Shown: positions 4,386-17,232, counted from the stretch's first letter. The stretch: DNA of 64,000 nucleotides from Gemmatimonadota bacterium (GCA_039586495.1 JBDHKG010000001.1:19355-83354), one strand, 5' to 3'. Notes: a model not told the origin generated them from the letters alone. Program-made: numbers and translations.

Positions 4386-4406
4386 TTGCCTCCAATATGG
4401 AGGCAA
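4386..4406 (+). promoter_or_regulatory. 9-3-9 perfect inverted repeat TTGCCTCCA-ATA-TGGAGGCAA, putative VapB operator
   Basis: Seen directly. Lies 14-34 nt upstream of the vapB GTG start and immediately before the GGAGG RBS. RHH antitoxins autoregulate through palindromes in their own promoter. Confidence 0.45.
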
Positions 4407-4419
4407 AACGGAGGATACC

Positions 4420-4650
4420 GTGGCCACTCTCAATATCAAGAACCTCCCCGACGACCTGTACCGAAAGCTCAAGGCGCGGGCGCGGCGGCAGCACCGCTCC
4501 GTCGCTCAGGAGGTCACCCACATCCTCAGCGAGGCGGTGACCGAGCCGGAGCCTCTGTCCATCCTCGAGCTTCGCGGTCTGGGCAAGGAGATCTGGAGGG
4601 GCGTGGACGCGGTGCGCCACGTAACCGAGGAGCGGCGCTCGTGGGACTGA
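4420..4650 (+). CDS. vapB: ribbon-helix-helix antitoxin VapB-like
   Basis: GTG start 7 nt after a GGAGG RBS. VATLNIKNLPDDLYRKLKARARRQHRSVAQEV has a beta-strand plus helix RHH signature. Stop overlaps the start of the downstream PIN gene. Confidence 0.7.
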   Translation: MATLNIKNLPDDLYRKLKARARRQHRSVAQEVTHILSEAVTEPEPLSILELRGLGKEIWRGVDAVRHVTEERRSWD

Positions 4651-5081
4651 GCGAGGCCGTCGGGCCCGGCCCGATCGCCCTCGACAGCGTCGCGTTCATC
4701 TACTTCATCGAGGAGCACCCGACGTTTGCGCCGCTGATCGCTCCGGTCTTCGAGGAAGCGGACCGCGGCGAGCGGGAGCTGGTGACCTCGGCGCTCACGC
4801 TCCTGGAGGTCCTGGTCGTACCCTACCGGGCGGGGGCTCTCTCTCTAGCCGAGCGCTACGAGGTGCTCCTCACCCGGAGCCGCGGCCTGGTCCTCGTGGA
4901 CATGGATCGCGTCCTCCTGCGGTCGGCGGCGGGTTTGCGTGCGATGTACGGCGTACGAACGCCCGATGCGCTTCAGCTCGCGGCGGCGCTCACGGTGCGT
5001 TGCGGGAGCTTCGTGACAAACGACCGCGCCATCCCGCCGATCCCCGGTCTCGAGGTAATCCAGCTCGGGGACTTGGTGTGA
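4641..5081 (+). CDS. vapC: PIN-domain ribonuclease toxin VapC-like
   Basis: GTG at 4641 overlaps the vapB stop (GTGGGACTGA). Conserved PIN acidic residues are present (LDSVAFIY, TLLEV, TPDALQLAAA, FVTND). ~146 aa. Confidence 0.7.
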   Translation: MGLSEAVGPGPIALDSVAFIYFIEEHPTFAPLIAPVFEEADRGERELVTSALTLLEVLVVPYRAGALSLAERYEVLLTRSRGLVLVDMDRVLLRSAAGLRAMYGVRTPDALQLAAALTVRCGSFVTNDRAIPPIPGLEVIQLGDLV

Positions 5082-13913: not shown

Positions 13914-14158
13914 GCGCCGGCGCGGCATGGACGCGCCCTATCCGCCGGAGGAGCGAGCTGGTCCCCTCCACCGACCGTGACTTCAGTCGCTTCTCCGGCT
14001 TGCGGCGGCGGCCACCGGCAGCGGACCCGCCTGCATAGGCGCGGGGCGCAGTACATACCAGTGCATTCGTGCTCAGGCGGCTGAGGTTCCGTTTGCAGGT
14101 CGCTGCTTGTACGGCAGCCAGCGTTAGTCTCACGCGCAGGCGAGGAGAGATGTGCACC

Positions 14159-16318
14159 ATGTCTCGGCGGAGTGTCCTCATCGCGTTGCTGGGCCTGGCG
14201 GTACCTGTCGGAGCCTCTGGTCTTCAGCCGGGCGTTGATCAGAAGCCCGAGGAGAGGCTCACGCTCATTGGCCGCGCACGGGTCTCGGCGGTCTACGACA
14301 TCGACGTGTCTTATTCGTACGCTTACGCGCTCGAACGCGGTGTGCTGCACGTGCTCGATGTGCAGGATCCGAGCGCGGTGCACGAGGTCGGCGTGCTGGA
14401 GTTCGAGCCGGCGCGTGCGCGGGCAGCACTGCGCCACCCGTACCTCTACCTCACGGGCTTCGGCGAGCCGATGGGCGTGGTGGACGTGTCGGATCCGGCA
14501 CAGCCCCGTTGGGTCGGTGAGTGGCCGGAACTGACCGGCACCTGGAGCGACGTGTTCGAGGTCGCAGACGGCGTCGGCTATCTGGTCAAGCAGGCGGAGG
14601 ATCGGCCGGAGGGGCAGCGCTCGCTGCAACTGGAAGTCCTGGATCTCGAGAGTGACCCGGCACATCCCAGGCGGCTCGGACTCGTGGATCTCGGCGTTCG
14701 GTTTGGAGGAGAGTACGGAGGAATCGCCCAAGCCGATGGACGCGTCTACCTGGTCGTCGAGCGCCCGATCGATGAGCCGACGCCTGATGCGCCGACGCGC
14801 AGTCGCCTCATCGTCGTCGATGTGCGTGAGCCCGCGGAGCCGCGCCTCCTGCACAACTTGCAGCTTCCACCCGACCGGTTGTTGAAGGACGTCGAGGTCC
14901 GCGGCGATCTGCTGTATATGCCGGTCTCGTGGCCGACGCACGGCCTCGCGGTCTTCCGGTTGAGCCAAGGTGGCGATCTGGAGCCGGTGGGTGAGGTCAC
15001 GGACGCTCGTCTGTGGCGCCCGATCGACCTGATCGTGCGCGGCCCGGCAGTCTACGTCACGTTCAAGGGCGACGTCGATCTGGTGACGTTCGATGTCTCT
15101 GACCCGACCGCGCCGAATATCAGCGGCACCCACACCACACCGGATCTCTGGGCGGCCGGCCTCGGGATGAGCCTGGTCGAGGACCGGCTATACGTGGCGG
15201 GCGACGGTGGGCCGACACCGATCCTCGATGTGTCGGAGCCGCTATCGCCGCGCCTGCTGGGGTACTGGCCCTTCAAGGGTGGCATGGTCAGAGGGATCGT
15301 GCGGGTGGGCAATCTGGCGCTCGTGGCCAACGCGGGTGGCGGTACCTTCGTCTACGACGTGTCCGACCCGAGCGCTCCGCGCAGGCTGGCCCGGCGGACG
15401 GCTGCCACGGTTCTCGGGATCGGGGACTGGCAGTGGAACGTCGTGCTCGCTGCGCACGGTTCTCGGGCGGTCGTGGCCTACGAGACGATCCTGGCCGAGC
15501 TACTGGATCTGAGCGAGCCGACGACGCCCCGCGTCCTCGGGTGGCACCGCCCGCGCGGTCTGGTGCATGCCATCGCGGTGACCGAGACACACGCGTTCCT
15601 CGGCTACCGCAGCGTCGCGACGGGGCGGATGCCTGACGTTCACGATCCGACTTCCGTCACGGAAGGGGGCGGCCTCGAGATCGTAGACATCCGGACTCCG
15701 CGTAAGCCCCAGCGTACGGCGGCGCTGGACCTGGGCGGGCCGGTGACCGACGTGTCGGTGGCCCGCGGGTATGTCATCGCCGCGCTGGCCGATGGGGGGC
15801 TGGCGGTCGTCGACCCGGGCGATCCGGACGAGCCCACCGTCCTGGCGCGCCTGGAAGGGGAGGGAGAAGTCGAGGCACTTCCGCTGCGCACCACCCGCAT
15901 CGCCACCGCGCCGGACGGCGCCCGGGCCTACGTCGCACATCGAGACCTGTCACCGAGGGGAGAGGGCTTCGCTCAGACGGGCACTCTCTCTGTCGTCGAC
16001 CTGCGCGATGCGACGGCGCCGCGGCGGCTGGGCCAGCTTGCTCTCGCGCACCGGAATGAGCGAGAGTACGACATCGCGGTGCGGGGCGATCAGGTGGTGC
16101 TGTTCGCCGGTGCGGTCCTGATCGTGGATGTGAGCGACCCGGCGTCGCCTACAGTGATGCTTCACGAGATGCCCGCTCCGGTGCGGACGTGGTGGGAGCG
16201 TACGTTCCTCGATGTGGATGACCAGCATCTCTACCTGGGCGCCGACGAGGACGGGGTGTGGATCTATCGTCTGCCGGACGCGCCGGCGGCTCGCGACCGG
16301 CACTCAGAGCGCGGGTGA
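14159..16318 (+). CDS. LVIVD-repeat beta-propeller surface protein
   Basis: Repeated L(H/I/Y)V(L/V)DVxDPxxP motifs ~60-70 aa apart (LHVLDVQDPSAV, LIVVDVREPAEP, TFDVSDPTAPN, ILDVSEPLSP, VYDVSDPSAP, IVDVSDPASP). Signal peptide after Met 14159 (RBS AGGAGAGA). Confidence 0.75.
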   Translation: MSRRSVLIALLGLAVPVGASGLQPGVDQKPEERLTLIGRARVSAVYDIDVSYSYAYALERGVLHVLDVQDPSAVHEVGVLEFEPARARAALRHPYLYLTGFGEPMGVVDVSDPAQPRWVGEWPELTGTWSDVFEVADGVGYLVKQAEDRPEGQRSLQLEVLDLESDPAHPRRLGLVDLGVRFGGEYGGIAQADGRVYLVVERPIDEPTPDAPTRSRLIVVDVREPAEPRLLHNLQLPPDRLLKDVEVRGDLLYMPVSWPTHGLAVFRLSQGGDLEPVGEVTDARLWRPIDLIVRGPAVYVTFKGDVDLVTFDVSDPTAPNISGTHTTPDLWAAGLGMSLVEDRLYVAGDGGPTPILDVSEPLSPRLLGYWPFKGGMVRGIVRVGNLALVANAGGGTFVYDVSDPSAPRRLARRTAATVLGIGDWQWNVVLAAHGSRAVVAYETILAELLDLSEPTTPRVLGWHRPRGLVHAIAVTETHAFLGYRSVATGRMPDVHDPTSVTEGGGLEIVDIRTPRKPQRTAALDLGGPVTDVSVARGYVIAALADGGLAVVDPGDPDEPTVLARLEGEGEVEALPLRTTRIATAPDGARAYVAHRDLSPRGEGFAQTGTLSVVDLRDATAPRRLGQLALAHRNEREYDIAVRGDQVVLFAGAVLIVDVSDPASPTVMLHEMPAPVRTWWERTFLDVDDQHLYLGADEDGVWIYRLPDAPAARDRHSERG

Positions 16319-17232
16319 TTTCGACCGACGCGGTTTCCGAGACGCCCAGGCCGCCTCCGCGGAGCGGCACCGTCTTCCTGATCCTGTTGGGGCTCTACCT
16401 GCTGGGGAAGCTGGGCTCTGTTCCTCTCCTGCTCGACACGGTACCGACAAGCCGCTGGCTGCCGATCGTGCCGCTGGGGATCCTGCTCAGCGTGCTGGTC
16501 ATCGCGGCAGGGCAGTACTTGAGCGCGCGAACCGGGTTGGGGCTGCCGTACGTGGAGGGCTGGCTTTCGGGGAAGCCGCCGTGGGAGAGGCTTCCTCGGG
16601 TACTCAGCCTGTCGGTGATCATCGCGGTGCTCGCCAGCCTAGCGGCGCTCGGCCTGTCGCTCCTCGCCTGGAGGCTGAACCTCGGTGTCGAGGGTGTCCG
16701 GCCGCGCATCGACGAGCTGGCGGCGTCGTATTCGGCGTCGTGGAAGTATCTCTTGGCTTCGGTCGATGCCGGGATCTCCGAGGAGATCTTCTATCGCTAG
16801 TTCCTGGTGTCGCTGATCGCGTGGCTCGGCAGCCGCGTGCGTGGGAGGGGACAGCCCGGTCGGGCGGCAATGTGGATCGCCGTGCTCGTGTCGGGGCTCA
16901 TCTTCGGCTGGGCGCACATCGACGACCGGCTGGGGCAGGCCGACTCGCTGCTCACGCTGGTCACCATCATGGCCTTCAGCGGCGGCCTCGGGATCGTGGT
17001 GGGGTGGCTGTACTGGCGCTACGGTTTGGAGACCGCCACGCTCACGCACTTCCTCACCGACGCGCTCTACTACGTGATCGTGCTGCCGGCGCTCTTCTAC
17101 GGCAGCACCCGGCTGGTCCTGGGTGTTCTGGCGGGTATGCTGCTGGTGCTGGCCCTCGCCTGTGCTGCCTTCGTGCGGAGCAGGACCGCCGTCGCGGCCG
17201 CGGCGACCGCCTCAGCGTGGCCCTCCGGCTGA
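16315..17232 (+). pseudogene. CPBP (CAAX protease / Abi) family intramembrane metalloprotease interrupted by in-frame TAG at 16798-16800
   Basis: GTG 16315 overlaps the LVIVD stop (GTGA). Motif 1 EEIFYR is followed immediately by TAG. Motif 2 FGWAH and motif 3 HFLTDALYY continue in the same frame in ORF 16807..17232. One protein is split by a single amber codon. Confidence 0.65.

Follow-up and report, generated by a model that had tools for sequence, protein, structure and literature searches.

In a stretch of 64,000 nucleotides from a Gemmatimonadota bacterium (GCA_039586495.1, JBDHKG010000001.1:19355-83354; hereafter the window, with a G+C content of ~68%), the functional unit within the 13-kb region at positions 4386-17232 is likely a two-gene lipoprotein module and not the region as a whole. 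The module consists of the gene for a CDC-like protein (CDCL) and the adjacent gene for a Gly-rich lipoprotein, hereafter the partner. An earlier, sequence-only reading had proposed the entire region as an island encoding a secreted toxin together with export and immunity functions. The VapBC toxin-antitoxin module, ABC-2 pair, TonB-dependent receptor, LVIVD-repeat protein and CPBP protease encoded there are unrelated neighbors in a rearrangement-prone accessory stretch. Genes were assigned from open reading frames (ORFs), Pfam matches and gene calls, and all lie on the plus strand. Every gene on which the sequence-only reading was built was recovered at the same position, and so was the TAG that interrupts the CPBP frame. 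The features of the module are:

5479-7326, plus strand: CDCL lipoprotein of 615 amino acids (aa), core module member (PF01289, E 5.7e-36; lipobox Cys)
7412-9190, plus strand: Gly-rich lipoprotein partner of 592 aa, core module member (lipobox LLSC; PKD, E 5e-9)
5212-9217, plus strand: 4.0-kb block holding the CDCL gene, the partner gene and 267 bp upstream (blastn map of the related locus L012 against the window; gene order of the related locus L093)

Conservation and features of the CDCL-partner pair

For comparison, about 90 CDCL loci (numbered with the prefix L) were assembled, 10 by exact-protein look-up and 80 from metagenomes by profile scan. They were screened with every window protein by tblastn and with a hidden Markov model of the non-repetitive part of the partner. 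For pairing counts, near-identical loci were collapsed and full-length CDCLs with informative flanks were considered. The partner adjoined the CDCL at 13 of these 22 loci, and pairing followed CDCL identity to the window protein: it was found at all seven loci with at least 50% identity (Gemmatimonadota-type) and at none below 40%. At Gemmatimonadota loci with enough flanking sequence (L002-L006, L011-L015), the partner was always the same-strand neighbor, separated by a gap of 24-86 bp; in the window it starts 85 bp 3' of the CDCL gene, on the same strand. In other Gemmatimonadota it also lay 3' of the CDCL, with identities of 50-61% for the CDCL and 47-52% for the partner. In more distant relatives with a CDCL identity of 41-44% (L007, L008, L017-L020), it was located directly upstream of the CDCL; in L018 the contig edge left the final 65 codons of the partner gene in this position. 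Homologues in this identity band were annotated as Zixibacteria, Krumholzibacteria or 'bacterium', and proteins identical or nearly identical to those of the window as Gemmatimonadales or Gemmatimonadota metagenome genomes. Partner orthologues beside CDCLs in other genera and phyla were 40-52% identical to the window protein, and the L012 orthologue 80%. The pairing is conserved across phyla, which upheld the suggestion that a second large secreted lipoprotein accompanies the CDCL.

A database protein (P0001) was 100% identical to the CDCL. The CDCL starts with a signal peptidase II (SpII) signal with lipobox Cys19, followed by a core of domains 1 to 3 (D1-D3) at residues ~40-377 and a ConA/LamG-like jelly-roll at ~385-615. 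The CDCL class has been defined by an F/Y-F/Y-Xn-YGR motif and a Gly pair (PMC7527733); in the window protein these correspond to FY in QSFYT (~219-220), YGR (261-263) and GG (315-316). Residues G262, R263, G315 and G316 were invariant across 113 homologues, as was the lipobox Cys, which in the Gemmatimonadota clade is followed by G/S/T-D-D/E. These acidic residues recall the surface-export signal of Bacteroidota lipoproteins, a resemblance that we take as a lead only. An AlphaFold2 (AF2) model built from the 113 homologues had a pLDDT of 91. In Foldseek searches, its first ~380 residues matched intermedilysin (ILY), perfringolysin (PFO) and pneumolysin (PLY) best (E ~1e-22) and the Elizabethkingia CDCLs (EaCDCLs) more weakly (E ~1e-12), and the C-terminal region matched lectin-like jelly-rolls; PF13385 was detected in homologues. 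TMH1 and TMH2 regions showed, as judged by eye, the alternation of polar and apolar residues of amphipathic segments. Modeled in this way, the beta-barrel-forming machinery of D1-D3 looks intact.

The protein thus combined the class motif, a D1-D3 fold with two helical bundles, a divergent C-terminus and an SpII signal, and its sequence contained no ECTGLAWEWWR-like undecapeptide; on these features it belongs to the CDCL class. Assignment to the CDCs proper was rejected, D4 and the undecapeptide being replaced by the ConA/LamG-like domain. A two-component CDCL (CDCL-S plus CDCL-L) was rejected as well: tblastn found a single PF01289 gene in the 64 kb, and the neighboring gene does not encode a CDCL.

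In a PDB profile search, the CDCL family matched CDCs with an E value of 5e-48, over D1-D3 alone and ending at about residue 372, vs. 5e-15 to 6e-12 for the EaCDCLs. By profile comparison, its D1-D3 core is nearer to the Gram-positive CDCs than to the structurally characterized CDCLs of Bacteroidota, and the family may represent the nearest Gram-negative-type relative of the CDC core. Since the CDCs target eukaryotes and the Elizabethkingia proteins are bactericidal, this ranking is in line with a CDCL aimed at eukaryotic membranes, such as those of protist grazers, algae or fungi, with a partner unrelated to self-immunity. Pore-formers directed at eukaryotes often carry lectin-like targeting domains. 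We consider a eukaryotic target rather unlikely, however, because the undecapeptide and the cholesterol-binding D4 are missing and because the lipoprotein CDCLs that have been assayed to date are bactericidal (PMC11169675).

Two further features of the CDCL and its gene were observed. Residues C73 and C375 were also invariant in the 113 homologues, and they may form a disulfide that ties D1/D2 to the linker between D3 and the C-terminal domain. The G+C content was 61-63% in the CDCL gene (window 5500-8000) vs. about 66-72% in the surrounding genes, which is consistent with foreign origin or with compositional constraint.

The partner consists of the lipobox LLSC, a PKD-like domain (residues 37-121), a segment resembling the N-terminal part of a DUF1565-type beta-helix (127-263) and a Gly-rich part. 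After residue 265, Gly makes up 43% of the sequence, with a period-3 signal, a collagen-like G-X-Y run and beta-helix-like rungs between. In an hhalign comparison, residues 127-263 corresponded to the beginning of a DUF1565 protein, covering its N-terminal cap and the first of its rungs (98.3% probability, E 2.6e-14); a direct PF07602 (DUF1565) match was obtained for one of 11 partner orthologues. All 11 aligned orthologues had the lipobox, the PKD-like domain, the DUF1565-like segment, the Gly-rich region and a conserved C-terminal end. The lipobox Cys was invariant in the family, with acidic residues next to it, and longer orthologues carried an additional Big_5 Ig-like domain. The AF2 model of the partner, built from a two-sequence alignment, was unusable (pLDDT 37), and a PDB profile search with the partner returned noise only, with no resembling sequence. 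A homologue search with its N-terminal 285 aa yielded five proteins, the query itself not among them, so that the family seems to be nearly absent from the index used for that search. When a representative library was searched with the partner N-terminus, the top 150 matches contained one true homologue, the rest being giant multi-PKD proteins.

A gene pair encoding an extracytoplasmic function (ECF) sigma factor (PF07638) and a TPR Ser/Thr kinase was located near the LamG-type CDCL in ~14 non-redundant loci (L007, L008, L010, L013, L017, L020, L021, L028, L035, L055, L057-L059, L064; for example L013:3697-6763 and L008:9882-13069). Its distance from the CDCL was ~50-3000 bp, and up to ~6 kb in L010 and L017, and it occurred whether or not the partner was present. 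This recurrence suggests dedicated regulation of LamG-type CDCLs. A search for homologues of the ECF sigma factor and kinase in the window found none, and CDCL upstream regions aligned across genera had no promoter motif in common. In Rhodohalobacter mucosus (QGGB01000006.1; L009:5832-17874), four PF01289 genes were found within 12 kb and no Gly-rich partner; two of them encoded domains of the FG-GAP/VCBS type, and genes for LpxR and DUF2279 were interspersed. Short-type CDCLs that match D1-D3 alone (L072-L082; e.g., L073:6592-8481 and L076:3263-5008) had genes for TPR proteins immediately 5', one or more of them encoding a LuxR/GerE domain. A gene for a protein with a type IX secretion system (T9SS) sorting domain was immediately 5' of the CDCL in L039, L043, L046 and L056.

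Neighboring genes and rearrangement of the region

The other features of the region are:

4420-4650, plus strand: VapB, FitA-like ribbon-helix-helix (RHH) protein of 76 aa (gene calls)
4641-5081, plus strand: VapC, PIN-domain protein of 146 aa (Pfam, E 1.9e-11; gene calls)
4394-5209, plus strand: VapBC segment, a strain-specific insertion outside the module
9313-10275, plus strand: ABC ATPase (Pfam; NCBIfam below cut-offs)
10262-11050, plus strand: ABC-2 permease, PF12679 (Pfam; NCBIfam below cut-offs)
11172-13913, plus strand: TonB-dependent receptor with CarboxypepD_reg domain (Pfam)
14069-16318, plus strand: LVIVD-repeat beta-propeller protein (Pfam, E 1.4e-26)
16258-17232, plus strand: CPBP/Rce1-like intramembrane protease gene (PF02517, E 6.8e-9), with in-frame TAG at 16798-16800

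Outside the window's lineage, tblastn across the ~90 loci detected no relatives of the ABC-2 permease, TonB receptor, CPBP protease or VapC near CDCLs. Matches to the ABC ATPase near other CDCLs were few, 27-40% identical and several kb away, and there was one weak match to the LVIVD protein; this is chance level for such abundant families. Locus L008 contained an unrelated ABC-2 pair ~6.5 kb from the CDCL, on the opposite strand. Apart from the one weak match, L012 and L093, contigs of close relatives in the window's lineage (~85% DNA identity), were the only loci with an LVIVD gene close to the CDCL. The gene order proposed as an island is therefore real in one lineage and recurs elsewhere only as the CDCL-partner pair. 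Of the six partners assigned to the CDCL in the sequence-only reading, co-localization in other genomes was refuted for five and found for the Gly-rich lipoprotein.

Even within the lineage, the order differed. In L012 and L093 it was Sortilin/BNR, FKBP, ABC, ABC-2, CDCL, partner, TonB receptor, MNT/HepT, LVIVD and a truncated TPR gene. The 4.0-kb block lay on the opposite side of the ABC pair, so that the ABC pair was 5' of the CDCL, and the left flank was unrelated to that of the window. An MNT/HepT toxin-antitoxin module separated the TonB receptor gene from the LVIVD gene (L012:16673-17690; L093:12955-13763), and there was no counterpart of window positions 16291-17237, which hold the CPBP gene. 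The ABC-2 pair, TonB receptor and LVIVD protein, which had been counted as parts of the island, were thus found by CDCLs only in this lineage and in a different order there.

The VapB and VapC ORFs share 10 nt and encode an RHH antitoxin and a PIN toxin, which identifies them as a VapBC type II toxin-antitoxin module. The module is real, but its role as the island's border did not hold: in L001 (CP070823.1), which is otherwise 93-97% identical, the MacB-to-CDCL junction was kept and the 0.8-kb VapBC segment was missing, so that the segment is an indel. The comparison with L001 ended at 10530 because of N-runs inside the CDCL gene, which also occurred elsewhere in that record; the sequence after the gap was unrelated to the window, indicating that the record was scaffolded across the locus. 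The toxin-antitoxin modules of the region, VapBC here and MNT/HepT in L012 and L093, are strain-specific indels. In the CPBP frame, the TAG (16798-16800) immediately follows EEIFYR. The motifs EExxxR (EEIFYR), FxxxH (FGWAH) and HxxxD (HFLTD) were all kept, the last two 3' of the stop codon, and the gene probably represents either a pseudogene of recent origin or a variant due to assembly. With the stop codon confirmed in a strain-specific gene, the suggested decay is plausible; a link with the CDCL is not supported, the gene being absent from L012 and L093.

The TonB receptor had more than 1400 homologues. Orthologues with 71% identity were preceded by a kinase gene and followed by an NlpC/P60 gene (L092, L094); in CP070722.1, a 71% orthologue was located 2.4 Mb from the CDCL-partner pair of the same genome, and a 75% orthologue had yet another gene context. 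The receptor gene is an independently conserved gene outside the module. The ABC pair is a generic exporter and a neighbor of the CDCL by descent only.

The order of beta-helix protein, ATPase and NosY-like PF12679 permease in the window mimics that of nosDFY. In such a reading, the Gly-rich protein and the ABC pair would form a periplasmic maturation system of the NosD-NosF-NosY type, to which the CDCL would be merely adjacent. We regard this as scarcely credible: the ABC pair precedes the CDCL in L012 and L093 instead of following the beta-helix gene, the neighbor of the Gly-rich gene in all other lineages is the CDCL and not an ABC pair, and no Pfam match to NosD was found in the partner or its orthologues.

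Signs of mobility were scarce. The window contained no tRNA gene, repeats at the borders were at chance level only, and the expectation of integration scars there was not borne out. No repeats were found at the junctions of the block swap, promoter and terminator scans gave background levels, and the gene annotation, which extended to ~35 kb, contained no integrase. IMG/VR viral contigs contained no relatives, and a plasmid search returned distant Bacillus-type D1-D3 homologues only. A genomic island or mobile element was rejected, since what separates the relatives is a block swap together with several independent small indels, and not the presence or absence of one unit.

Taken as a single toxin, export and immunity island, the whole of 4386-17232 would use the ABC-2 pair as exporter or immunity pump and CPBP as an immunity protease, with accessory roles for the TonB receptor and the LVIVD protein and with VapBC marking the border of a mobile element. 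The genes are tightly packed on one strand, the ABC pair is next to the CDCL pair in both arrangements found in the lineage, and an NCBIfam family of ABC-permease/CPBP fusions weakly matched the CPBP fragment; elsewhere, ABC-2 and CPBP families are tied to bacteriocin immunity. Yet none of the other genes was found by CDCLs in any other lineage. The ~85% identical L012 and L093 lack CPBP and carry a different toxin-antitoxin module, VapBC is absent in L001, TonB-receptor orthologues occur in unrelated contexts, and neither integration features nor relatives on phage contigs were seen, with plasmid relatives distant only. These observations make the island very improbable. The presence of ABC-2, CPBP, TonB-receptor and LVIVD genes beside a toxin gene in one genome does not by itself, without synteny support, carry an export or immunity reading.

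Further variation was observed around the region. Four paralogous, duplicated MacB_PCD/FtsX permease genes of ~800 aa, with 35-37% mutual identity, were present within 34 kb:

1738-4152, minus strand: MacB_PCD/FtsX paralogue
20786-23209, minus strand: MacB_PCD/FtsX paralogue
29112-31532, plus strand: MacB_PCD/FtsX paralogue
31683-34142, plus strand: MacB_PCD/FtsX paralogue

The window also contained an NlpC/P60 gene (624-1700, minus strand; 358 aa), of the same length as that of L092 and L094 and 10 kb from the TonB receptor. Its placement hints at a history of inversion or insertion, if orthology is assumed. The TPR gene next to the region (17242-19014, minus strand) encodes 590 aa vs. 263 aa in L012 and L093, where 969 bp (323 codons, in frame; window 17410-18378) are missing.

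Proposed function of the module

The proposed mechanism starts with lipidation of the two lipoproteins, which would then be displayed on the surface of the cell or released from it. The CDCL would bind its target through the lectin-like domain, oligomerize and insert a large beta-barrel pore. As judged from the CDCLs of Bacteroidota, a competing bacterium would be the most likely target. In Bacteroides, an immunity lipoprotein gene adjoins the CDCL genes (PMC11169675). The partner may similarly shield the producer, as does the surface lipoprotein BcdI and conceptually CD59 (PMC11169675), or it may assist the attack. An immunity role is only marginally favored over a helper role.

A partner that acts as co-toxin or helper would leave the pair itself intact as a unit. 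It could bind or clear surface glycans in the manner of a tailspike-like polysaccharide binder or degrader, or serve as a docking platform at the membrane, comparable to CDCL-L recruiting CDCL-S. PKD and Ig-like domains combined with a DUF1565-type beta-helix, typical of adhesins and glycan-active proteins, would suit such a role; the partner has the first and last of these, and its longer orthologues carry the Big_5 Ig-like domain. Its size of 60-70 kDa is far above the 30 kDa of BcdI, and the CDCLs of E. anophelis function without an immunity gene. Conversely, neither a catalytic motif nor a site for glycan binding was found in the partner, for which the AF2 model gave no usable structure, and many CDCLs with a LamG-like domain have no partner. 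We consider the helper role possible but doubtful.

Several points weigh against the two-gene module. The partner was missing from 9 of the 22 informative full-length CDCL loci, and the CDCL is therefore not strictly dependent on it. Searches with the partner were swamped by PKD proteins or came back nearly empty, and the pairing was counted from the side of the CDCL loci. Its role is entirely inferred, relatedness having been detected only to PKD and DUF1565 sequences. A surface location of both proteins is presumed, and every member is known from sequence and models. In addition, both arrangements of the lineage keep the ABC pair directly beside the CDCL-partner pair, and a lineage-specific link between them is formally conceivable.

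With these points considered, the CDCL-partner module was retained as the likely functional unit. Only tentatively do we go further and propose that the partner may be a new, dedicated CDCL partner whose evolution was coupled to that of single-gene, lectin-tailed CDCLs in several phyla of the FCB group. It would be either an immunity factor not of the BcdI type or an obligate helper, its Gly-rich fold would be unrepresented among the accessory proteins of pore-formers, and the module might be under the control of an adjacent ECF sigma factor and kinase pair in many lineages.

Comparison with known systems

CDCLs with an adjoining immunity lipoprotein are already known from Bacteroidota. In the literature searched, an incomplete library, nothing was found that described CDCLs of Gemmatimonadota or neighboring phyla, the LamG-tailed single-gene form or the partner, and the pairing of a CDCL with a Gly-rich lipoprotein appears to be undescribed. 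Within that literature, the statement that no described system has these partners holds for the Gly-rich one.

The BSAP toxins of Bacteroidales, which belong to the MACPF family, reportedly have their immunity conferred by an adjacent, toxin-resistant orthologue of the gene for the target receptor. What they have in common with the CDCL pair is a pore-former gene next to one that encodes a surface component of the producing cell; the difference, apart from the toxin family, is that nothing marks the Gly-rich lipoprotein as a receptor orthologue. DUF1565 (PF07602) proteins resemble the partner over residues 127-263, and differ in the remainder, which is 43% Gly with period 3 and has no database match, and in the added lipobox and PKD domain.

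The classical CDCs perfringolysin O, intermedilysin and pneumolysin provided the best D1-D3 matches to the CDCL and share with it the residues of the motif and a pair of amphipathic TMH regions. They carry a D4 with undecapeptide and Thr-Leu motif, whereas the window protein has a lectin-like domain in its place and is a lipoprotein of a diderm bacterium.

The closest system is that of Bacteroidota CDCLs with BcdI (PMC7527733, PMC11169675, PMC11952106). Shared features are the PF01289 D1-D3 core, the F/Y-F/Y...YGR motif, the Gly pair, the SpII signal, the lack of an undecapeptide, a C-terminal domain not of the CDC type and a co-oriented, adjoining gene for a surface lipoprotein. By analogy, the partner resembles BcdI in adjacency, shared strand and lipobox. 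At ~60 kDa and with a PKD domain, beta-helix and Gly-rich region, it differs from the 30-kDa BcdI, a contrast drawn from size and architecture. In addition, Bacteroidota have a short and a long CDCL, whereas here a single CDCL gene encodes a ConA/LamG-like jelly-roll C-terminus, and neither a porin gene nor one for a C11 protease was noted near it. The window belongs to the phylum Gemmatimonadota, and relatives carry the annotations Zixibacteria, Krumholzibacteria and Calditrichia. The recognition of CDCLs as antibacterial weapons is recent and confined to Bacteroidota, where they act as toxins of two components and a small lipoprotein confers immunity. If the present reading is correct, a family of single-gene, lectin-tailed CDCLs in Gemmatimonadota and neighboring phyla would extend this picture to bacteria that are abundant in soils and sediments, and the pair would offer a compact two-gene target for studying how producers resist or assist a giant-pore toxin.

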